From NCBI GenBank assembly GCA_043808325.1, contig JAZDEY010000037.1, positions 19,623 to 83,622 on the forward strand: a stretch of DNA of 64,000 nt, written 5' to 3'. This DNA comes from Candidatus Eiseniibacteriota bacterium (lineage in GTDB: Bacteria > Arandabacterota > Arandabacteria > Arandabacterales > Arandabacteraceae). The position numbers and the translations under genes were made by a program. Numbering within the stretch: the first letter of the stretch is position 1; the number at the start of each line of letters is the position of its first letter. The notes below the pieces were generated by a model. The model was given only the letters and a program-made list of their open reading frames with translations. It was not told the origin of the DNA and made no database searches. This document shows positions 2,038 to 13,168 of the stretch, piece by piece.

Positions 2038-3561
2038 TCACCCCGACCGGGCGGAATCGCTCCGCGCCACCAACTGCCTCGCTCGGACCAGGATCCGGCG
2101 TGCCTCTCCATAGACTTTGTCCCTCTCCTCGACCGATATGATCCACGTTTTGCGGATGCAGATGTACACGATCAGGCCCACGATCGGAACCGCCAGAAGA
2201 GGCGGCATCAGCAAGACAAAGGCCAGCAGGCACGTGACCACCGTTCGCTTGGTCACGGGGAGCCCGAACCTGTGGCACAAGGCGACAACGATACACCACA
2301 TCAGAAAGTAAGACACCATTGTGGCGACTGCAGCTCCGACCATGCCCAGGCGCGGAATCAGCAGGAGGTTGAGAATGATGGTAGCCGGCATTGCAATTGA
2401 GAACGCTATCGCGGAAACATACGTCTTCTCAATCAGGGGCGGATAGACACCAAACAACCAAACCAGTGTCGTGTAAAGGTAGAAGACTACCAAGAACGGC
2501 AGCACTCTTGCGCCCGGAGCGTAGTCGGCGCCCAGCACCACCGTTATGAACCACTTCCCGAGCACCACCAGAACCAGGCCTATCACAAGCAGGATGATCG
2601 CAGTAACCCTCAGGGCACCGTCCAGATCCTTCAGGGCCTTCTCCCTTTGACCCATCTCCCAGGTTGCGCTCAGGTGGGGGTAAACTACATTGCAGATCGC
2701 GAGTCCGACCGCAGACATGCTCTCGCTCAGGTTGACCGTGGCCGAATAGATCCCCTGATCCGACGTGTTCATCAGATGCTGAAGGCTGAACCTGTCGACA
2801 TACTGAAAGATCTGAGCGAGGATCGGGGTGACCGCAAACCAGACTGTGAACCTCAGCAGACGCCGATAGAATGCGGTCTCTACTATCGCTTCGGGCACCG
2901 GCTCCACGGACCTCGCGTACCGCAGCAGTAGGGGGAGAAAAATCACCACAGCGCCAAAAGCCGAGATCACAAAACCAAGAATCCCCATGGCCGCCGACCG
3001 GGATACCACCACCAACGCAATCCCTGCAACCGCATAGATGGCAACCTGGCCGGATTCGGCCAGGCGGCCGGCTCGAAAGAGCTTCAGTCCCATAAATGTA
3101 CTGGTCAGGTTTCGCAGCAGAAGGAACGCCGGTATACCCATGGCGCTAACGATAATAACGTCAGTGTGTGACGCGTTTCCGTAAATCAGTCTTGAGAAGA
3201 AAGACGGTCTGACCAGTACTACTGCGGTCAGCAGCACCGACAGGGCAATGGTAAGGACGTAGGTCTTCCTAAGGTAGGATCGAAGTCCCCCCCTCATCGC
3301 GTAACGAGGGGCATACCTCATGAACGCTGACGGAACACCGAGGCTCGCGATCATACCCAGCAGGGGGACAAGGAAGAGGCCCAGCGTATAGATTCCGTAC
3401 TCAGTGGTCCCGAGCAGTCGCGCAAAGACTATTCCCCTTGCGAACGAGACCACCCTATCGATAAACACCAGGAAAAGGACCAAACCGATAGAGGCCGCCA
3501 TCCGGTCCTTTGACAGGAACCAGCCTTGGAGTCCCTTGCTTTCCTCTGTGGAGGGCTGCAT
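2038..3561 (-). CDS. wzx: Wzx-type oligosaccharide flippase (MOP superfamily)
   Basis: 507 aa, about 12-14 hydrophobic segments, ARLLGTTEYGIY N-terminal and LIPRLGMVGAAVAT C-terminal patterns, polysaccharide locus context. Confidence 0.85.
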   Translation of the reverse strand: MQPSTEESKGLQGWFLSKDRMAASIGLVLFLVFIDRVVSFARGIVFARLLGTTEYGIYTLGLFLVPLLGMIASLGVPSAFMRYAPRYAMRGGLRSYLRKTYVLTIALSVLLTAVVLVRPSFFSRLIYGNASHTDVIIVSAMGIPAFLLLRNLTSTFMGLKLFRAGRLAESGQVAIYAVAGIALVVVSRSAAMGILGFVISAFGAVVIFLPLLLRYARSVEPVPEAIVETAFYRRLLRFTVWFAVTPILAQIFQYVDRFSLQHLMNTSDQGIYSATVNLSESMSAVGLAICNVVYPHLSATWEMGQREKALKDLDGALRVTAIILLVIGLVLVVLGKWFITVVLGADYAPGARVLPFLVVFYLYTTLVWLFGVYPPLIEKTYVSAIAFSIAMPATIILNLLLIPRLGMVGAAVATMVSYFLMWCIVVALCHRFGLPVTKRTVVTCLLAFVLLMPPLLAVPIVGLIVYICIRKTWIISVEERDKVYGEARRILVRARQLVARSDSARSG

Positions 3562-3756: not shown

Positions 3757-3850
3757 TCACCTCTGGCTGGCAAGCGTGCAGTCTGCCGCGGCCCGATCGC
3801 GGCAGCGGCACGAGGCAGCGCTTCCGGGCGGGCTCGCAAGAAGGTATCGG

Positions 3851-5035
3851 ATGGCAAAGCGGCAAATCGAAGCAAGCGGCAGGAAGATCAGAGTCTGCCT
3901 CGTGATTCCCAAACTGGAAATGGGTGGAGCCGAGGTCGAGGTGCTATGCCTTATCAGGCACCTGGATAAGTCCCGCTTCGACGTATCCCTGCTATGCCTT
4001 GCCTCAGGAGACTGTGAAATGGAAAGAGAGGCCCGGCAGCACCTCGAGGCCTTTGCCACGGTTGGATTCCGCTCGAGGTACTTTCCGCTGTCCTTCGCCA
4101 AAATGGTCGCCTGGCTTCGTCGTGGCAGTTATGACGTCGTTCACTGCCATTTGCCTGTCGCCGATGTGATAGGCAGATTTGCAGGCTGGTTTGCGGGGGT
4201 CCCCGTGCTCGTCACGACGGAGCACGGGAAATACATCTGTAAGGCCTGGTACCACCTGCTCTTGGATCGCTTGCTTGATCCCCTGACCGGCATGCGAATA
4301 TGCGTGAGTCAGGACATCCTGGACATTCGCGCCCGGCGCGAGGGCACCCCTCTATCCAAGCTAGTCCGAATCCCCAACGGTATTGAGACCATGAAGTTTA
4401 GAAGCCCCGGGAGAGACCGGGCGTCGGTAATGGCTGAGTTCGGCTGGGCGGCTCCGGATCCTTTGGTTATATCAGTGGGACGGCTCGCGCCTGAAAAGAA
4501 TCATGGAGTGCTCCTCGAAGCGATTGCTCGGATTGGCCCTAGGCACCCTCAGGCGAGATGCTTGCTGGTCGGCAGCGGGCCGTGCAGCGCCGAGATTCTC
4601 GCTGAGGTCGACTCCCTGGGCCTCACGGGCCGGGTGAAGTTGGCCGGCTCCCGCAATGATGTTCCCGATCTGCTCGCGGCCGCAGACATATTTGTTCTTG
4701 CATCACTCAAGGAGGGCCTGCCGGTCTCGTTGCTCGAAGCAATGGCCGCCGGAAAGGCGGTAGTGGTCACATCGGTTGGCGGCATGCCCGAGGTAATCAC
4801 TGATGGCGACAATGGGCTGGTCGTCCCTTGCGGAGACACAGACGCGCTTGCGGATGCGATCGACAGACTCCTGCGGGACGGAGATCTCCGAAAGGCCTTT
4901 GGGGAGGCCGTGAGAGCCAAGGCTGAGAAGGAATTCGACATCCAGCACGTGGCGGATGAGATCGGGCGTGTCTACACCGACCTTTACGGGAGAAAGCGGC
5001 GGGTCAGAGGGCTACGCGACAAGGAGGCCGAATGA
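3851..5035 (+). CDS. Glycosyltransferase family 4
   Basis: GGAEVEV N-terminal motif, SVGRLAPEKNH, SLKEGLPVSLLEAMA. ATG 3851 preferred; the ORF track opens at 3776. Confidence 0.92.
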   Translation: MAKRQIEASGRKIRVCLVIPKLEMGGAEVEVLCLIRHLDKSRFDVSLLCLASGDCEMEREARQHLEAFATVGFRSRYFPLSFAKMVAWLRRGSYDVVHCHLPVADVIGRFAGWFAGVPVLVTTEHGKYICKAWYHLLLDRLLDPLTGMRICVSQDILDIRARREGTPLSKLVRIPNGIETMKFRSPGRDRASVMAEFGWAAPDPLVISVGRLAPEKNHGVLLEAIARIGPRHPQARCLLVGSGPCSAEILAEVDSLGLTGRVKLAGSRNDVPDLLAAADIFVLASLKEGLPVSLLEAMAAGKAVVVTSVGGMPEVITDGDNGLVVPCGDTDALADAIDRLLRDGDLRKAFGEAVRAKAEKEFDIQHVADEIGRVYTDLYGRKRRVRGLRDKEAE

Positions 5036-6225
5036 GCCCTCAAGGAATCCCGGTTGTGATGTACCACAGCGTGGGCAGAGATAGGCCCGATTGGATATGG
5101 AATTACTTGATTACGCCCGCCGACATCTTCGATGGCCAGATGCGGCTCCTCAAGGAGTCGGGGTGGACCGCAATCTCGCTGGATGTTCTCCATTCCCATA
5201 TGTCCAAGGGCACGCCGGTCCCGGAGAGATCGGTGGTCCTGACCTTCGACGACGGATACGTGGATAATTGGGTGTACGCCTTCCCGATTCTCCGGAAATA
5301 CGGCCATCATGCCGTCATCTGGGTCAGCACGGATTTTGTCGATCCTTGCAAGGAGCCCCGGCTGAACCTCGAGGATGTCTGGGCCGGTAAGATCGGCGAG
5401 GATCGGCTGGATCCGCGGGGTTACCTCTCTTGGGCCGAAATGGGAGAGATGGTACGAGGAGGCCTCATAGAGGTACAGAGCCATGCCAAGACACACACCT
5501 GGTACCCCAGCGGTCCTGAGATTATCGACTATCACAGACCCATAGGGATCGACGGCTATCAGTTCCCCCCCTGGCTCGCCTGGAATCGGTTCCCCGAAAG
5601 AAAGTACCAGAGCCTGAGTGTCAGGCTGGATCAGGAGATTCCATATGGGACACCGATCTACAGTCATCAGAAGTCTCTCGTAGTCCGTCGCTACGTCGAG
5701 GATGCGGACCTCACTGCCCACCTCACCCAGGAAGTGAGCACAAACGGCGGGTCGCAGTTCTTCGAGCGGCCTGGCTGGTGGGAAAAGCTGCGCGCGATTA
5801 CGGATACCCCCCGGGCGGACAGATTCGAGACCGACGAAGAACATCAGGCCAGGGTGACGGATGAGTTGACCGAATCACGGAGGCTGATTGAAGACAACCT
5901 CGGAACCGCGGTCAGTTTCCTGTGTTGGCCTGGAGGCGGCTATGACCCTGTGACGCTTAAAATCGCCCGTCAAGCGGGCTATCTGGCGACAACGACCCAT
6001 TACGAGGATCGCAACAGACGAAACGTGCCTGGCCAGAATCCAAGTGAGATCAACCGAATGGGATGCGGGGCGCCTTGTGTATGGCGAGGACGAGTCTTCC
6101 GCCGGACCGACCCGGAGTTCTTTCTGGCGGGGCTGCAATATTTCGCCGGAGACCGAAAATCGTTGTGGAAACTGCGCCGGCTTAAGTTAAAATACCTGGC
6201 ACGGTACACCTTGAGGGGACAGTGA
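5032..6225 (+). CDS. Polysaccharide deacetylase (CE4/NodB, IcaB/PgaB-like) with a large insertion
   Basis: VMYHSV, LTFDDGY, QSHAKTH and LCWPGG motifs; ATGA overlap with the GT4 stop. Confidence 0.88.
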   Translation: MSPQGIPVVMYHSVGRDRPDWIWNYLITPADIFDGQMRLLKESGWTAISLDVLHSHMSKGTPVPERSVVLTFDDGYVDNWVYAFPILRKYGHHAVIWVSTDFVDPCKEPRLNLEDVWAGKIGEDRLDPRGYLSWAEMGEMVRGGLIEVQSHAKTHTWYPSGPEIIDYHRPIGIDGYQFPPWLAWNRFPERKYQSLSVRLDQEIPYGTPIYSHQKSLVVRRYVEDADLTAHLTQEVSTNGGSQFFERPGWWEKLRAITDTPRADRFETDEEHQARVTDELTESRRLIEDNLGTAVSFLCWPGGGYDPVTLKIARQAGYLATTTHYEDRNRRNVPGQNPSEINRMGCGAPCVWRGRVFRRTDPEFFLAGLQYFAGDRKSLWKLRRLKLKYLARYTLRGQ

Positions 6226-6249
6226 TAATCTAGCAAGAGGATCCGAATC

Positions 6250-7971
6250 ATGTTGCCGCCTCTTTCACAGGCTTTGGTCAGGCACTTCATATATCCCATC
6301 TATCGTGGCCTGCGCCACGACCGGCTGACTGAGATCCGACGGGATGCCGAGAAACATCAGTGGCTATCTTCCGAGGATCTCGAGACCCTTCAGTGGCGGC
6401 GGATAGCCGATTTTCTCGCGCAGATCACTACCCACGTACCCCACTACCACAATCTCTTCAAGGAAGCCGGGCTTGATCCTAGAGCGATACGCAGCCCAAA
6501 GGATTTCCTGAGTATCCCATTGCTTACAAAGCAAGACATTCGTCGTGTGGGAAGCCGCATCATCACCCAGGACCCTTCGAGGAGAGGCTTTAAGTCCAAC
6601 ACCAGCGGCTCGACCGGAGAGCCTCTTTTCTTCTACTGTGACGTGTCCGCAGGGCCCTTGAGGCGAGCATTCAGCGCGCTCGGCTATCGGTGGGCCGGAA
6701 TCGACATCGGAGACCGGATTGCTTACATATCAGGTTTCAATCTCGACAAACCCTTGAAAGAGCGTTTGGCGGACGGGGTAAAGAACTACTTCAACAACAG
6801 GGCTTTCCTTTCATCCTTCAACATGTCCGAGGCAAGGATGCAGAAATACGCCGGGATGCTGGGGGCATTCAAGCCTGACGCGATAGACGGCTATCCCTCA
6901 GCGGTTGCATTGTTTGCTGAGTACTGCAAGAGCCATCGGATTGCGGGGATCAAGCCGCGGGCGGTCTTTGCGAGCGGCGAGAAGGGTTATCCCCATCAGA
7001 GTCAGGCCATAAAGGAGATCTTCGATTGTCCTCTGTTCGATAGATACGGGAGTAACGAATTCTCCATAACTGCGCAGGAATGCGAGCAGCACAACGGGCT
7101 GCACCTCCTTAATCAATTCCTCTATGTGGAGGTAATCCACGAGAGCGGCCGCCCGGCCGGGAGCGGTGAGATCGGAGAGATCGTCGTGACTGACCTTTCC
7201 AATCTCTACATGCCGTTCCTGAGATATCGTACCGGCGATCTCGCGGTTCCTACGGTAAGGAAGTGCCCGTGTGGGAGAGGCTCTCCCCTTCTGGATCGAA
7301 TCGAAGGCCGCACGTTCGACGTCGTGGTAACCGCGGACGGCAAGGCCGCAGGTGGTTATTTCTGGACCTATCTGTCGAGGTTCGTCCCCGGCATCAAGCA
7401 GTTCCAGATAGAACAGCGGGATCGGACCGGAGTGACCTTCAGGATAGTCCGTGGACCGGATTGGAAAGACCAGTATACCCGAGATCTTGAGAGAAAAATC
7501 AAGGAGAACCTGGGCGAGGAATTCAAGACCAGCTTCGAGATGGTCGATGACATTCCGCTGACCCCAGCCGGTAAGTTCAGGTTCATCTGGTCCAAGATCG
7601 CCGAGCGGCTCGTGGTTAAGTCCAAGATCCATAAGGCGACCGTCACCGGATCGGCACCGGACGGGATCGATTGCATCGTCGTCGACGAGGAACTCCTCGA
7701 ACTCAGCAATCTCGCGCCTTTCGAGAGGGTCCTGGTTGTCGACAACGTTAACGGCGCACGGGTCGAGACGTTCGTCGCAAAGGGCAAGAGAGGAAGCGGG
7801 GAGGTTGTGATATCGGGAGCCGGCGTACATCATATCGGCATTGGCGATGAGATAATCATCATGGCCTTTGCGTGGTCTGAGGAACCTGACAGCGTCTTTA
7901 AGAACATCCTCGTGGATGATAGGAATCGCTTCGTCCGTTACCTGGTCGAAGTTGCCGGCGAGAGGCTGTAG
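6250..7971 (+). CDS. PaaK/CapK-like adenylate-forming ligase fused to a C-terminal PanD-like domain
   Basis: ANL motifs TSGSTGEP, YGSNE, RYRTGD, EGR, TPAGKF. From about residue 451 (nt about 7600), KSKIHKATVT...DNVNGARVETF...GKRGSG...GDEIIIMAF aligns without gaps to PanD over positions 3-93. Confidence 0.88.
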   Translation: MLPPLSQALVRHFIYPIYRGLRHDRLTEIRRDAEKHQWLSSEDLETLQWRRIADFLAQITTHVPHYHNLFKEAGLDPRAIRSPKDFLSIPLLTKQDIRRVGSRIITQDPSRRGFKSNTSGSTGEPLFFYCDVSAGPLRRAFSALGYRWAGIDIGDRIAYISGFNLDKPLKERLADGVKNYFNNRAFLSSFNMSEARMQKYAGMLGAFKPDAIDGYPSAVALFAEYCKSHRIAGIKPRAVFASGEKGYPHQSQAIKEIFDCPLFDRYGSNEFSITAQECEQHNGLHLLNQFLYVEVIHESGRPAGSGEIGEIVVTDLSNLYMPFLRYRTGDLAVPTVRKCPCGRGSPLLDRIEGRTFDVVVTADGKAAGGYFWTYLSRFVPGIKQFQIEQRDRTGVTFRIVRGPDWKDQYTRDLERKIKENLGEEFKTSFEMVDDIPLTPAGKFRFIWSKIAERLVVKSKIHKATVTGSAPDGIDCIVVDEELLELSNLAPFERVLVVDNVNGARVETFVAKGKRGSGEVVISGAGVHHIGIGDEIIIMAFAWSEEPDSVFKNILVDDRNRFVRYLVEVAGERL

Positions 7972-8009
7972 GCAGTCCCGGATTGTTGTACGCGGAGCGC
8001 CGACTTGTG

Positions 8010-8018
8010 TGATATACT
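8010..8018 (+). promoter_or_regulatory. Extended -10 promoter upstream of the stand-alone panD-like gene
   Basis: TG-a-TATACT at 8010-8018; no well-spaced -35. Confidence 0.45.
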
Positions 8019-8070
8019 GAGTGTCGGAAGAATAGGTGCACCGCGTTCGGATGATCGAAAGTGAGTGGCA

Positions 8071-8430
8071 ATGAAACGACTGCTTCTCAAGTCAATGATC
8101 CTGAAGGCCACGGTAACCCAGGCTGACCTACGTTATGTGGGCAGTATCACCATAGACCAGGATCTGATCGGCAAGAGCAATCTGAGTGAGAACGAGAACG
8201 TCCTGGTGGTCGATCGGACCAACGGAAACAGACTCCAGACCTATGTGATCAAGGGTGAACGCGGAAGCGGTACAATATGCATGAACGGAGCCGCGGCACA
8301 TCTGATCAACCAGGGCGACACGATTGACATAATGGCTTTCACTTGGTCCGGCACCAACCTCCAGCCTCTTTTCATCGCCGTTGACGAGCGCAACCGTTTC
8401 GTGCGCTATGTCGAGCCCGGCAATATCTGA
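8071..8430 (+). CDS. panD: Aspartate 1-decarboxylase-like (PanD family) pyruvoyl proenzyme, atypical
   Basis: Starting at ATG 8071 the numbering matches E. coli PanD: Y22-V-G24-S25, R54, T57, Y58, N72GAAAH. K9, H11 and I86 are replaced by M, L and D. Confidence 0.9.
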   Translation: MKRLLLKSMILKATVTQADLRYVGSITIDQDLIGKSNLSENENVLVVDRTNGNRLQTYVIKGERGSGTICMNGAAAHLINQGDTIDIMAFTWSGTNLQPLFIAVDERNRFVRYVEPGNI

Positions 8431-8599: not shown

Positions 8600-8674
8600 T
8601 GGAGGCGGCATCCGGATTTGAACCGGAGTATAACGGTTTTGCAGACCGTCGCCTTACCGCTTGGCTATGCCGCC
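8600..8674 (-). tRNA. tRNA-Cys(GCA)
   Basis: GGCGGCA/TGCCGCC acceptor stem, U73, encoded CCA, anticodon GCA at 8640-8642, GGTTCAAATCC T-arm. Confidence 0.97.
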
Positions 8675-8682
8675 CTAACTAA

Positions 8683-8757
8683 TGGAGCGGGAAACGGGAC
8701 TTGAACCCGCGACCATCACCTTGGCAAGGTGGCGCTCTACCACTGAGCTATTCCCGC
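8683..8757 (-). tRNA. tRNA-Gly(GCC)
   Basis: GCGGGAA/TTCCCGC acceptor stem, anticodon GCC at 8723-8725, GGTTCAAGTCC T-arm, encoded CCA. Confidence 0.97.
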
Positions 8758-9487: not shown

Positions 9488-10984
9488 TTAACTTGCGCTC
9501 ACCACCCTTTTCCTCGCTAGCGTCGCAGCGTAGACCTCACTGTAAGCGATGGCTGATCGCTGCCACGAAAAATCCTCGGCCATGGCTCTCAGCATAAGCT
9601 TGGTCCACTGATCCTTCTTGACAAAAGCCCTTACCGCCCGCTCCAGGGTGGCGATCAAGGCCCTGGCATGATACTCTCCAAATACAAAACCCGTTGAGTC
9701 TCCGTACTCATCGAAGTCGCGGACGCTATCGGCAAGCCCCCCGGTTTTCCGAACAACTGGGACGGTCCCGTACGCCATGCTGTACATCTGGTTGAGACCG
9801 CAGGGCTCGTACTTTGACGGCATCAGGAACATGTCGCAGCCCGCCTCGATAAGATGGGCCATTTCTTCATCAAAGCCGATCGTGACCGAAATCCGGCCCG
9901 GGAAACGCTTGGCGTACGTGCAGAGAGCCTCATGATACTTCTTATCGCCGGTTCCCAGCACGACAAGGCCCAAGCCCAGGCCCATCATTGCATCCATGGA
10001 TTCCATCACTATATCGAAACCTTTCTGATCGACCATGCGGGAAACGATGCCCGCGAGTGGGGTCCCGGCATCGGCTGCCAGACCCAGGCGTCCGATCAGG
10101 TGCTGCTTACACTTGACCTTTCCATCGAGATCACGGCTCGTATACTGGCATGGAATCAGACTGTCGGCGGCCGGGTTCCACACGCTGTAGTCGGCCCCAT
10201 TGAGAATCCCAATGACGTCAGACGAACGGGACTTGAGGACACCTTCAAGACCGTGGCCGAATTCCGCAGTCTGAATCTCGCGCGCATAGGTGGGGCTTAC
10301 GGTCGTGATGGTATCCGCAAACGTGATGCCCGCTTTCATCATGTTGATGTTGCCATAGAATTCCAGCGGGCCCATCGGCCACATCAGATCTTCCCCCAAG
10401 CCCGCTTTGCGACCGACCTCCGTGGGGTAGACACCTTGATATGCCAGATTATGTATGGTGAACACCGTCCCAAGGTCCCTGAAGGCGCCCCGCTCGGCCA
10501 GCGAAGTTCTGATCCAGACCGGGATAAACCCCGCCTGATAGTCGTGGCAATGGATGACGTCGGGCCTCCACCCTGTTGCATCAACAAGCTCGAGGGCCGC
10601 TCGCGAGAAGAACAGGAAGCGCTCGGCATTGTCGTCGAAGTCTTTGCCGGTGCGAGGATCGGTGTAAATGCCTTCGCGACCAAAGAGCTGATCATTACCG
10701 ATCAAGTATACCGAGACCTTGCTCTGGGGCAGCTGGGTCCGCCGTAGGGTTGCCCTTTGCTTGATGCCGCCAAGTACGACATCCAACTTGTCGAGGCCTC
10801 TGATCTTCTCCACACCGATCTTCTTCTCTTTGATCGATCGATAGTAGGGCATAGCTATCCGGACGTCATGACCCAGATCGCAAAGCGCCTTGGGCAAAGC
10901 GCCGAGGACGTCCGCCAACCCGCCGACCTTCGCCAACGGATGGGCCTCAGCCGCGACCATGAGGATTGAGAGCTTGTTTTCCAT
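9488..10984 (-). CDS. glgA: Glycogen synthase (GT5)
   Basis: KVGGLADV, HCHDYQ, FTIHNLAYQG, MPSKYEPCGLNQM, TGGLADSV. Start set at ATG 10984 (MENKLSILMVAAE). Confidence 0.95.
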   Translation of the reverse strand: MENKLSILMVAAEAHPLAKVGGLADVLGALPKALCDLGHDVRIAMPYYRSIKEKKIGVEKIRGLDKLDVVLGGIKQRATLRRTQLPQSKVSVYLIGNDQLFGREGIYTDPRTGKDFDDNAERFLFFSRAALELVDATGWRPDVIHCHDYQAGFIPVWIRTSLAERGAFRDLGTVFTIHNLAYQGVYPTEVGRKAGLGEDLMWPMGPLEFYGNINMMKAGITFADTITTVSPTYAREIQTAEFGHGLEGVLKSRSSDVIGILNGADYSVWNPAADSLIPCQYTSRDLDGKVKCKQHLIGRLGLAADAGTPLAGIVSRMVDQKGFDIVMESMDAMMGLGLGLVVLGTGDKKYHEALCTYAKRFPGRISVTIGFDEEMAHLIEAGCDMFLMPSKYEPCGLNQMYSMAYGTVPVVRKTGGLADSVRDFDEYGDSTGFVFGEYHARALIATLERAVRAFVKKDQWTKLMLRAMAEDFSWQRSAIAYSEVYAATLARKRVVSAS

Positions 10985-11007
10985 AGGTGGGTTCCTCGTC
11001 TCTGGAA

Positions 11008-12021
11008 TCACCGCTTGAGGCTTGCGATCACGATCTCCCTCAAGTACCGACAAGCCTCCTCGGGAGCGGTGGGATTGATGTAAAAGCCCGAACCCCATTC
11101 AAAGCCTGCGACCTTGGTGAGTTTCGGTATCAATTCGATGTGCCAGTGATACCACGCCCGGTTGTCACCTTGACAGGGCAGCGTATGCAGTATGAAGTTG
11201 TAAGGAGGTCGGTTGAGCGCCGTATCCAGCTTCATCAGGATCTCCTTAAGCACCCTGGCGAGCATCTGAATGCCCGACCTGTCGATTTCCTCGAAGGCAG
11301 ATTCGTGGGACTTGGGCAGGATCCAGGTCTCGAACGGGAATCGCGGCGCAAACGGTTCGATCGCGAGGAAGGTCTCATTGGCGCTTACCACCCTGATGTC
11401 GTCGATAGTCTCCTGCGAGACGATGTCGCAGAAGATGCAACGTTCCTTGAATTCGAAGTACTTCCGGGAGTTATCGATCTCTTCACTGACCCGCTTCGGT
11501 ATGATAGGCATCGCGATCAATTGAGTGTGTGAGTGCTCAAGCGAGGCACCCGCTGCTTCACCGTGATTCTTGAATATCAGGATGTACTTGAATCTTCCGT
11601 CCCGTTTGAGGTCGATCATCCGCTCGCGCCAAGCCACTAACACCTCGACGATCGTGCCCTCATCCAGGTCACCCAGAGATTTCTCATGGTCGGGGGTTTC
11701 GATGATCACCTCGTGGGCTCCGATGCCGTTCATCTTGTCGTAAATCCCCTCACCCTGCCGGTTGAGATCCCCTTCGATCTGGAGTGCGGGGAACTTATTC
11801 GGCACGACTCTCACCCGCCAGCCGGGGGTATCTCGCGAGGTTCCGGGATTCCTAATAGCAAAGACCTCAGGCGGGGTCTTGCTCTCATTTCCGGAACAGA
11901 AAGGACAGAAGGCCGTGGATTTTGCGACGGGGACCGTAACGAAATCCGTCGGCCGTTTACCTCTCTCGGTAGATATGATCACCCACCTGCCGATGATGGG
12001 GTCTCTCCTCAATTCGGGCAT
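11008..12021 (-). CDS. galT: Galactose-1-phosphate uridylyltransferase / GalT-like nucleotidyltransferase
   Basis: MPELRRDP, CPFC, VPNKFPAL, GASLEHSHTQL (HxHxQ), YHWHIE. Confidence 0.93.
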   Translation of the reverse strand: MPELRRDPIIGRWVIISTERGKRPTDFVTVPVAKSTAFCPFCSGNESKTPPEVFAIRNPGTSRDTPGWRVRVVPNKFPALQIEGDLNRQGEGIYDKMNGIGAHEVIIETPDHEKSLGDLDEGTIVEVLVAWRERMIDLKRDGRFKYILIFKNHGEAAGASLEHSHTQLIAMPIIPKRVSEEIDNSRKYFEFKERCIFCDIVSQETIDDIRVVSANETFLAIEPFAPRFPFETWILPKSHESAFEEIDRSGIQMLARVLKEILMKLDTALNRPPYNFILHTLPCQGDNRAWYHWHIELIPKLTKVAGFEWGSGFYINPTAPEEACRYLREIVIASLKR

Positions 12022-12118: not shown

Positions 12119-13168
12119 CTAGCCAAGATGTTTGTAGAGGACCCTCCCCATGGCCTTGCCGATGAAGTTCGGCGAACGCTTGAGCGCGCTGGTCATCAAG
12201 CGGTACTTGGCCGACTCCTCAACGGTCGAGGCCGTGCCGCGAACCTCGGGATAGTAAAGATAGTTGAGGTCGACCTCAAATGCATTCCATCGTTCCTTGA
12301 AGTAGCGGAGCTCCTTGCTTGCCTTGGGGGTCCTCAAGAAATCGAAAGCCTTGTAGCCCCGGAGACATCCCATCTCAATAGCTTTCCAGAAGAGTATCTG
12401 ATGTACACGGTACGATCTGTAGGCCGCGGCCGAGCCGATGTACGCTGCACACAGGGTAGACCCGACCCCGAGAGTGATCAGGCCCGCCACAGGCTTGCCC
12501 CGGTGAACCGCCACGTGGAGGTGTAGGTTCTGCGGCCAGAGATGTAGCCACAGGTTCCGGAAGAAGCTATAGGGTTGGGGCGGGACACCGTGCTTGAGCC
12601 TGAGGCTCGAGAAGAACGCGTAGAACTGTTTCAGGTCATTGAGGTCGGCCGCGTCCCTGACCTCAATCCCTTTCTTCGCTGCCTGCCTGACCTCGGTCCT
12701 CACGTTTCGGTCCTTGAAGTTCTCCCAGACCTTGGTCGGGTCGCTGTCCAGCTTGACAATCGACGTTATGAAGTAGCTGACCCCGGTGAACCTTGGGTCC
12801 TCGATCGGATTGATATCGGCCTGAGTCCGAATTTCGAGCGCCTTGACCCCGAGCTCGGCCGAGAGATCCAGTGCCCTCCCGAGCAGCCCAGCCACACATT
12901 CGGGCGCCCCAATGGGTCCGCACGTGTTCGCGAAGGGAAGCGATACCAGCCGTCTTCCCGTAAGCCAGCTTCTTACGTGCATCAGCGGAAGCAGGGCTCT
13001 GAGGTCGCCCCCTTCCAGGCAGCCCAGGTACATGGGCTGGTACCCGTAGGTAGAGATGATCGCATCTCTCCATGCAGGCGTGTGATAGATTGTAGCCTGC
13101 CCGCAGCCCCCGACAAAACGTTGGTAAGCTTGCTCGTGCCTGCTATCAAGGACGCTGACGTCTCCCAT
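12119..13168 (-). CDS. FemAB-like GNAT-family protein (PEP-CTERM/EPS-locus type)
   Basis: YHTPAW, RLVSLPFANTCGP, VRTEVRQAAKKG, FDFLRT, FKERW two-domain FemAB-like pattern. Confidence 0.8.
   Translation of the reverse strand: MGDVSVLDSRHEQAYQRFVGGCGQATIYHTPAWRDAIISTYGYQPMYLGCLEGGDLRALLPLMHVRSWLTGRRLVSLPFANTCGPIGAPECVAGLLGRALDLSAELGVKALEIRTQADINPIEDPRFTGVSYFITSIVKLDSDPTKVWENFKDRNVRTEVRQAAKKGIEVRDAADLNDLKQFYAFFSSLRLKHGVPPQPYSFFRNLWLHLWPQNLHLHVAVHRGKPVAGLITLGVGSTLCAAYIGSAAAYRSYRVHQILFWKAIEMGCLRGYKAFDFLRTPKASKELRYFKERWNAFEVDLNYLYYPEVRGTASTVEESAKYRLMTSALKRSPNFIGKAMGRVLYKHLG

Follow-up and report, generated by a model that had tools for sequence, protein, structure and literature searches.

Two PanD paralogues with complementary active-site residues, one fused to a CapK/PaaK-type ligase, conserved together in uncultured bacteria

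The aspartate decarboxylase PanD is a textbook homotetramer, and a bacterium that encodes two divergent PanD-fold proteins side by side, neither of them with a complete active site, raises the question of what such a pair might do. We address it for a stretch of 64,000 nucleotides from a Candidatus Eiseniibacteriota bacterium (contig JAZDEY010000037.1, assembly GCA_043808325.1, positions 19,623 to 83,622 of the forward strand), henceforth the window. The first of the two proteins is a fusion of 573 residues (6250-7971, + strand), with an adenylate-forming ligase in residues 1-450 and a PanD-like domain (PF02261 match) in residues 454-560; the second is a stand-alone PanD of 119 residues (8071-8430, + strand; PF02261 at 3e-38). 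An earlier note made from the DNA letters alone had observed that the two copies lack different active-site residues, and had proposed that alternating subunits rebuild a complete site. As detailed below, the split of residues is a property of the two families that extends beyond this window and is conserved in more than 100 uncultured bacteria. We favour, as its probable though by no means assured explanation, an obligate hetero-oligomeric pyruvoyl decarboxylase with composite active sites, tethered to the ligase.

Reciprocal loss and joint retention of the two copies

We took the E. coli PanD sequence, which is identical to that of PDB 1PPY, as the ruler for residue numbers and aligned both window domains with the E. 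coli and M. tuberculosis PanDs using MAFFT. The stand-alone protein shows the changes K9M, H11L and I86D, and keeps Y22, G24, S25, R54, T57, Y58, I60, N72 and A75; the fused domain shows Y22G, G24D, S25C, Y58F, I60A, N72S and A75G, and keeps K9, H11, R54, T57 and I86. Neither window protein thus carries the full set of K9, H11, Y22, G24, S25, R54, T57, Y58, N72 and I86 in one polypeptide. The alignment reproduced every residue call of the earlier note for both copies, and its estimate of about half identity corresponds to 45 identical residues over 90 gap-free codons (50%; 49-50% for the domains). Both copies, used as queries, find the PanD structures in the PDB. The PanD equivalog model TIGR00223 (cut-off 106 bits) is passed by the stand-alone protein with 115.5 bits and missed by the fused domain with 71.1 bits.

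On the DNA, the fused domain, a PanD fold without the processing site that we term PanD* (7609..7929, + strand; PF02261 at 1e-24), carries K9 as K459 (7624-7626), H11 as H461 (7630-7632), R54 as R504 (7759-7761), D24-C25 as D474-C475 (7669-7674), F58 as F508 and S72 as S522. The corresponding positions of the stand-alone protein are M9 (8095-8097), L11 (8101-8103), G24-S25 (8140-8145), T57-Y58 (8239-8244), N72 (8284-8286) and D86 (8326-8328). The list of open reading frames has this gene begin with GTG at 8065, but its homologues all begin with MKR, that is, with the ATG at 8071. The RNRFVRY tail common to both copies is encoded by AGG AAT CGC TTC GTC CGT TAC in the fusion and by CGC AAC CGT TTC GTG CGC TAT in the stand-alone gene, so that, as had been noted before, six of the seven codons differ and every change is synonymous. 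This is a weaker argument than family-wide conservation, since the D-x-x-N-R core of the tail is also present in canonical PanDs, for example in a Thermus sequence.

A search with the fusion found 585 proteins, and the best 120 of the 585, from Krumholzibacteriota, Latescibacterota, Eisenbacteria and Nitrospirota metagenome bins, are almost all fusions of 560-580 residues with 45-92% identity to the query. Across the PanD* domains of 118 fusions, K9 and H11 are present in 118 of 118 and R54 in 117, while the processing site is uniformly absent: G24 is never present, its place being taken by Asp in 115 domains and Glu in three, and the next residue is Cys in 78, Gly in 20 and Ser in 20. Phe occupies position 58 in 99 of these domains, and at position 72 any of C, S, G, T and N occurs. 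The isoleucine at position 86 behaves differently from the other residues that the fused domain was said to keep: it stands in the window, but as a family feature it fails, being found in just 47-58% of the PanD* domains, with S or G in the remainder.

The stand-alone type shows the opposite pattern. Among its 120 closest relatives (71-88% identical; 153 relatives in all), none has K at position 9 (115 have M) or H at position 11 (where L, M, I, V, F and, once, Q are seen), and D86 is present in 120 of 120. The same holds for G24, R54, T57, Y58, I60, N72, G73, A74, H77 and D83 (each 120/120), with S25 in 119 and Y22 in 118; over all 153 relatives the processing site persists as G24 in 153 and S25 in 152. 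The control was a set of 78 canonical PanDs, drawn from many phyla among the matches listed for the stand-alone profile search; these have K9, H11, Y22, G24, S25, R54, T57, Y58 and N72 without exception, and I86 in 77 of the 78. A position-by-position comparison of both types with 80 canonical PanDs shows that, at strictly conserved positions, the stand-alone type departs at 9, 11 and 86 only (position 12 is also flagged, but is merely variable there). Departures of the fused type fall within the processing loop (18, 20, 22-25 and 27) and at 55, 58, 60, 64, 72, 75, 78 and 103. Both window types share derived traits that are absent in canonical PanDs, namely W92, F114 and a deletion at 98-100. 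In a neighbour-joining tree the three groups form clean clades; the branch leading to the fused domains is long and the rooting is by midpoint only, so that sisterhood of the fused and stand-alone types is not readable from this tree.

A few sequences depart from these types. One protein of the stand-alone type has M9 and D86 yet retains H11 (P0249), and a non-canonical PanD combines K9, Q11, G24, C25 and D86 (P0308). A free-standing PanD*-like protein with K9, H11, D24 and A25 (P0283; L193, 1772-2137) adjoins ilvC. It was considered as an unfused intermediate and set aside, its 2.3-kb contig showing no partner; a second candidate intermediate, P0098, proved to be merely a paralogous ligase within a tandem CapK pair.

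The two genes are also retained together. A survey of one genome per species (GTDB; 185,579 species genomes) recovered 39 loci with the fusion. In 32 of the 39 the stand-alone gene lies within the fetched stretch, immediately downstream of the fusion in all but Nitrospira japonica, where 3.7 kb separate the two and the stand-alone gene follows GT4 and deacetylase-like genes of its own. Three of the other seven loci end at contig ends; a D86-type PanD is found elsewhere in the same genome or contig for six of the seven, and the seventh ends at a contig end. Pairs whose members lie apart are L021/L163, L012/L185, L024/L175, L007/L170, L029/L186 and L009 with L005. A DNA pattern specific for the D86 type, G-D-x-[IV]-D-I-M-A-F-x-W, occurs in only 31 stretches among the species genomes, all of them in Krumholzibacteriota, Latescibacterota or unclassified metagenome-assembled genomes, and the fusion is visibly adjacent in 22. 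Where a CapK-like ligase lacks the PanD domain (L042-L080), no PanD is found within 6 kb of it. Both genes were present together in every genome that could be judged, and among these none carried one partner alone. The earlier note had looked to homologous loci lacking the reciprocal pattern as potential counterexamples; none was found among all loci examined. In this pair, then, the two paralogues have reciprocally lost different active-site residues, the losses are conserved, and both genes have been kept.

A first alternative is that one or both copies are decaying duplicates without a joint function, whose reciprocity arose by coincidence, and it could appeal to the absence, from each copy, of residues that canonical PanDs keep without exception. 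Against it, the same substitutions recur in 118 fusions and 153 stand-alone relatives at ligase identities of 45-92%, and the reading frames are intact in the 39 species-level loci. Moreover, Nei-Gojobori estimates against the orthologues in the related loci L168 and L187 give ratios of nonsynonymous to synonymous substitution (dN/dS) of 0.04-0.05 for the stand-alone gene, 0.07 for PanD* and 0.14 for the ligase part, values that are rough because dS is saturated. PanD*, though it lacks a processing site, is therefore more constrained than the ligase to which it is attached, and the purifying selection on both copies that had been surmised from the tail codons is borne out. The family-wide conservation excludes decay, which we regard as extremely improbable.

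Origin of the active-site residues in cis and in trans

Published structural work on PanD lists K9, H11, Y22, G24, Pyr25, R54, T57, Y58, G73, A74, A75 and I86 as strictly conserved, and places Lys9 and Arg54 on the other subunit and Pyr25, Thr57 and Tyr58 on the same one, with Lys9 paired to the substrate alpha-carboxylate, the one that leaves (PMC3314653). A second source likewise has Arg54 acting in trans, with the Ala74/Ala75 backbone on the pyruvoyl side (PMC6969166). Among the residues tested, only Thr57 is required for cleavage, and in the zymogen Asn72 hydrogen-bonds to Ser25 (PMC3975893). Thus, of the four residues that the earlier note had assigned to the neighbouring subunit, K9 and R54 are documented as such, and for H11 and I86 we infer membership in the trans set on two grounds: K9 and H11 occupy positions i and i+2 of one strand, with their side chains pointing the same way, and positions 9, 11, 54 and 86 are lost together in unit 1 of a second protein family, which is described next.

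When the fused domain was scanned against 1.84 billion representatives, a 263-residue protein with two PanD-fold units emerged, belonging to a tandem PanD-PanD* family of 14 clusters and about 265 residues (P0265 and P0389-P0401; 13 relatives at 62-71% identity; loci at L191 2276-3067, L194 8001-8813 and L196 6001-6744). Unit 1 has E9 (14 of 14), V11 (13 of 14), no Arg at position 54 and T86 (14 of 14), and it holds Y22, G24, S25, T57, Y58, N72 and G73 in all 14. Unit 2 has K9, H11, R12 and E24 in all 14, A25 in 12, together with C58, and W92 in 14 of 14. The acidic residue at position 24 and W92 hence recur in the dead unit of both the tandem and the fusion families, and in the tandem family R54 goes with K9 and H11, as predicted from the structures. 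Since the tandem units are covalently linked, the residue split recurs here in a setting where both units must share one complex. The tandem gene stands alone, with neither pan genes nor a ligase in its neighbourhoods; one partial member is labelled Patescibacteria.

Deposited states of E. coli variants bear on maturation. The H11A (1PT1) and G24S (1PQF) chains are uncleaved, and S25C (1PYU) contains a cleaved alpha chain that begins with Cys. Since G24S is deposited uncleaved and S25C cleaved, D24 argues against cleavage of PanD*, even where Cys25 is present. By the same token, the uncleaved H11A hints that the stand-alone zymogen, with its L11, may need a His in trans in order to mature. Wild-type E. 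coli PanD has also been crystallised uncleaved, and such deposits are therefore hints only.

The uncleaved H11A is also compatible with a second alternative, in which PanD* is a regulatory or maturation partner that, in the manner of PanZ or of a prozyme, binds the stand-alone zymogen, sets off or governs its cleavage and activity allosterically, and donates no catalytic residues. It has precedents in PanD/PanZ (PMC4410942, PMC3473359) and AdoMetDC/prozyme (PMC5201418), and the co-occurrence of the genes and the strong constraint on PanD* would suit it equally. However, a purely allosteric PanD* need not hold exactly K9, H11 and R54 invariant, and the universal loss of K9 and H11 from the catalytic subunit would go unexplained. 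We consider it distinctly unlikely in this pure form; it also overlaps with the heteromer, since a His11 supplied in trans would amount to maturation and complementation at once.

In the heteromer that we favour, the stand-alone subunit would provide the cis half of each site, namely G24-S25, where self-cleavage generates the pyruvoyl group, together with Thr57, Tyr58, Asn72 and the backbone of residues 73-75, and PanD* at the C-terminus of the ligase would provide the trans half, reaching across the interface with Lys9, His11 and Arg54. The most economical assembly would be an alternating A2B2 pseudo-tetramer with two complete sites and two non-catalytic interfaces. As D86 and D/E24 are invariant gains, a separate function of the second interface is probable, and we speculate that a lock on the heteromer may be formed at the non-catalytic interfaces by D/E24 of PanD* with D86 and R54 from the stand-alone subunit. 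Since only a short flexible linker separates PanD* from the ligase, beta-alanine would then be made right beside the adenylating enzyme. In sum, we infer a physical complex of this kind, with its stoichiometry, partner-dependent maturation, channelling and the substrate of the ligase.

Several points weigh against such a complex. The trans residue Arg54 is invariant in the stand-alone copy, which a dead trans face would not predict and which fits a homomeric site that uses R54. D86 in one partner and D/E24 in the other are invariant gains, so that the apparent losses may reflect a new function and not complementation. I86 is not conserved in PanD*, and the stand-alone copy scores above the NCBI equivalog cut-off for PanD. 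The genes are not adjacent in some genomes (L012/L185, L021/L163 and L032). A linked construct of both partners, modelled by AlphaFold2 from the single sequence, reached a predicted local distance difference test score (pLDDT) of just 34. Finally, the full-text literature search returned no source for a trans origin of His11 or Ile86, and none of the sources read calls K9 or H11 indispensable for catalysis.

Much of this evidence can be gathered under a third alternative, in which the stand-alone protein works by itself, as a pyruvoyl-dependent homotetramer whose pocket has been remodelled (M9, L11 and D86, with R54 kept) and which perhaps acts on another substrate. PanD* would then serve the ligase without catalysis, by binding aspartate or beta-alanine or by driving oligomerisation. 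The invariant R54 would suit a homomeric carboxylate-binding site, D86 is an invariant gain in a protein that passes TIGR00223, the invariant D/E24 suggests a function of its own for the PanD* pocket, and in some genomes the two genes are unlinked. Retained Arg54, acquired Asp86 and the equivalog score keep this alternative in play. Yet it leaves unexplained why the residues lost by the stand-alone protein are the very ones that are invariant in a partner devoid of a pyruvoyl site, and why the two genes co-occur so strictly. In the tandem family, moreover, the catalytic half has lost R54 too, and the other half still has K9 and H11; and Lys9 is described as pairing with the leaving carboxylate (PMC3314653). 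On balance we judge the self-sufficient homotetramer unlikely.

The obligate heteromer suggested in the earlier note has gained ground on several fronts (family-wide reciprocity, co-occurrence, selection, the trans origin of K9 and R54, and the tandem family). Among the points that leave it partly supported, R54 is invariant in the stand-alone type, and D86 and D/E24 are gains, not losses.

The ligase and a putative beta-alanine glycan pathway

The ligase part of the fusion (6250..7599, + strand; residues 1-450) comprises both subdomains of a CapK/PaaK-family adenylate-forming enzyme. Its profile matches in the PDB include the PaaK-family structure 4R1L at 4e-47 and 2Y4O over residues 37-447, and among its matches are the direct amide- or ester-forming members NatL2 and AjiA1. 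An AlphaFold2 model of the whole fusion has a mean pLDDT of 85 and a predicted template modelling score of 0.71, with PanD* at about 90 and a low-confidence linker at 451-453; the top Foldseek matches of this model are 4R1M and 2Y4O, with a template modelling score of about 0.67 on the target. Conservation extends to the P-loop TSGSTGEP and the C-terminal GK (G441, K442), G120 and G441 being invariant and T118, S121, T122 and K442 nearly so. The two-subdomain fold, the P-loop and the C-terminal catalytic Lys are hence all present, as in the PaaK/CapK-type ANL ligases, and judged by its sequence the ligase is intact. The precomputed Pfam family on the fusion proteins is PF27533 (CapK_C). The ligase misses every NCBIfam equivalog cut-off in this group (PaaK, F390 synthetase, FlxY and the DVU_1553 family), and by a wide distance, for instance with scores of 74 versus 646 for PaaK and 149 versus 300 for the DVU_1553 family.

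The fusion and the stand-alone gene share a reading frame and, in the translation of the region, are separated by two stop codons. The 99-nucleotide spacer between them (7972..8070, + strand) has no promoter-like or terminator-like site; with the genes co-directional and so close, this fits their co-transcription. Upstream lie the two other members of a conserved four-gene module. The first encodes a GT4 glycosyltransferase (3776..5035, + strand; Pfam Glycos_transf_1 at 4e-44), whose top NCBIfam match is the PEP-CTERM/XrtA GT4 family TIGR03088, under the cut-off. The second, directly upstream of the fusion, encodes a polysaccharide-deacetylase-like protein of the CE4 type (5032..6225, + strand; Polysacc_deac_1 at 7e-20) that is similar to the N-terminal part of PgaB. 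The order GT4, deacetylase-like protein, ligase::PanD* and PanD (3776-8430 in the window) is the usual one. A GT4 homologue is found upstream of the fusion in many related loci, including that of Nitrospira japonica, and a deacetylase-like homologue (52-69% identity) directly precedes the fusion or the stand-alone PanD in most. The module was seen in loci L001-L038, L032 and L185, and in some genomes it is split, with GT4, deacetylase and PanD in one place and the fusion in another.

Acting together, the ligase, the GT4 and the deacetylase-like enzyme would build a beta-alanine-bearing glycan or glycoconjugate, with the ligase placing beta-alanine onto a sugar-based acceptor. Mycothiol and bacillithiol synthesis follows a similar logic of GlcNAc transfer, deacetylation and ATP-dependent amino-acid ligation. 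The four-gene module is uncharacterised and probably installs beta-alanine on a sugar, a pathway proposal that is much less certain than the heteromer. We tentatively entertain a broader scheme that unites these threads, as a real possibility rather than a probable outcome. In it, at least two natural PanD lineages would have split the inter-subunit site into a pyruvoyl unit and a Lys9/His11 donor, either as two genes, the donor being part of a fusion with a CapK-type ligase, or as a tandem didomain. The donor would be required for both maturation and turnover, and assembly would gate beta-alanine, coupled to beta-alanine-dependent glycan modification in Krumholzibacteriota, Latescibacterota and some Nitrospira.

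Further genes surround the module in the window. A MOP-family flippase (2038-3561, - strand) and a FemAB-like PEP-CTERM/XrtA-associated protein (12119-13168, - strand; TIGR03019, under the cut-off) flank it, with more GT4 and GT2 genes close by; the flippase and the FemAB-like protein suggest an exopolysaccharide locus, possibly with amino-acid decorations. Immediately 3' of the PanD gene and convergent with it are genes for tRNA-Cys(GCA) and tRNA-Gly(GCC) on the minus strand (8600-8674 and 8683-8757), and the tRNA-GT2-GlgA synteny is common to the window and L168. A glycogen-synthase-like reading frame (9488-11098, - strand) and a galactose-1-phosphate-uridylyltransferase-like one (11008-12021, - strand) overlap by 91 nucleotides as listed, and the downstream gene probably starts at a later codon. 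The close relatives L168 (736-3311) and L187 (1-1215) have, after PanD, a second CapK-like ligase that is 33% identical and lacks a PanD domain, followed in L168 by a second deacetylase-like gene; the window is without this pair and continues straight to the tRNA genes.

Comparison with known systems

More than 250 protein clusters of these families carry the public names 'aspartate 1-decarboxylase' or 'phenylacetate-CoA ligase', and metabolic reconstructions based on such automatic names would wrongly credit ordinary panD and paaK to these uncultured phyla. If the heteromer is real, it would be nature's own version of the classical 'shared active site' complementation experiment, and a clean bacterial case of paralogues made mutually dependent by complementary degeneration in a small, structurally well-understood enzyme. 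The proposal can be tested directly with two small recombinant proteins.

Both window copies belong to the PF02261 fold family of the canonical PanDs (E. coli 1AW8/1PPY, M. tuberculosis 2C45). With the M. tuberculosis enzyme the stand-alone copy shares 52% identity, and it has the canonical G24-S25, T57, Y58 and N72. Canonical PanD, which decarboxylates L-aspartate to beta-alanine, forms its active site where adjacent subunits meet, K9 and R54 being contributed by the neighbour, and as a homotetramer with four equivalent sites it carries both halves of the site in each subunit, whereas no single polypeptide of the window pair has both. Also unlike canonical PanD, one window copy is a domain of a ligase and lacks the processing site. 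The tandem PanD-PanD* proteins resemble the window pair in partitioning cis and trans residues between two PanD-fold units. In contrast to it, their units are covalently linked, with the catalytic unit first and no ligase, the catalytic unit has also lost R54, and exopolysaccharide-type neighbours are absent; identity between the tandem units and the window domains is just about 34%.

The ligase part likewise has relatives of known structure in the CapK/PaaK family (4R1L, 2Y4O, NatL2 6TM4 and AjiA1 6WUQ), with which it shares the two-subdomain fold, the P-loop and the catalytic Lys. The placement of the fusion gene in a polysaccharide-type gene cluster is a further resemblance to this family. 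It differs from these enzymes in its extra C-terminal PanD-like domain and in missing all curated equivalog cut-offs.

Nothing that our full-text literature searches returned describes a PanD heteromer, a PanD pseudo-domain or a CapK-PanD fusion. As far as these searches reach, the split-site pair is unreported for PanD, while the concept has precedents in deoxyhypusine synthase and AdoMetDC/prozyme. In the enterobacterial PanD-PanZ (PanM) system, a second protein is required for the maturation and regulation of PanD and joins it in a hetero-octamer (PMC4410942, PMC3473359); unlike PanD*, PanZ has a GNAT fold, is no paralogue of PanD and contributes no catalytic residues. The AdoMetDC of T. 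brucei is, like PanD, a pyruvoyl-dependent decarboxylase, and it is activated by heterodimerising with a catalytically dead paralogue (PMC5201418). That prozyme, however, relieves autoinhibition and donates no active-site residues to an enzyme that keeps a complete site, and the fold is another one. The deoxyhypusine synthase of trypanosomatids differs in its unrelated fold and chemistry, in its eukaryotic setting, in the lack of a fusion to a downstream enzyme and in having been shown experimentally, the PanD pair being known from sequence alone; it nevertheless offers the same arrangement of an impaired and a dead paralogue that are active only as a heteromer, with both genes retained (PMC3663545).

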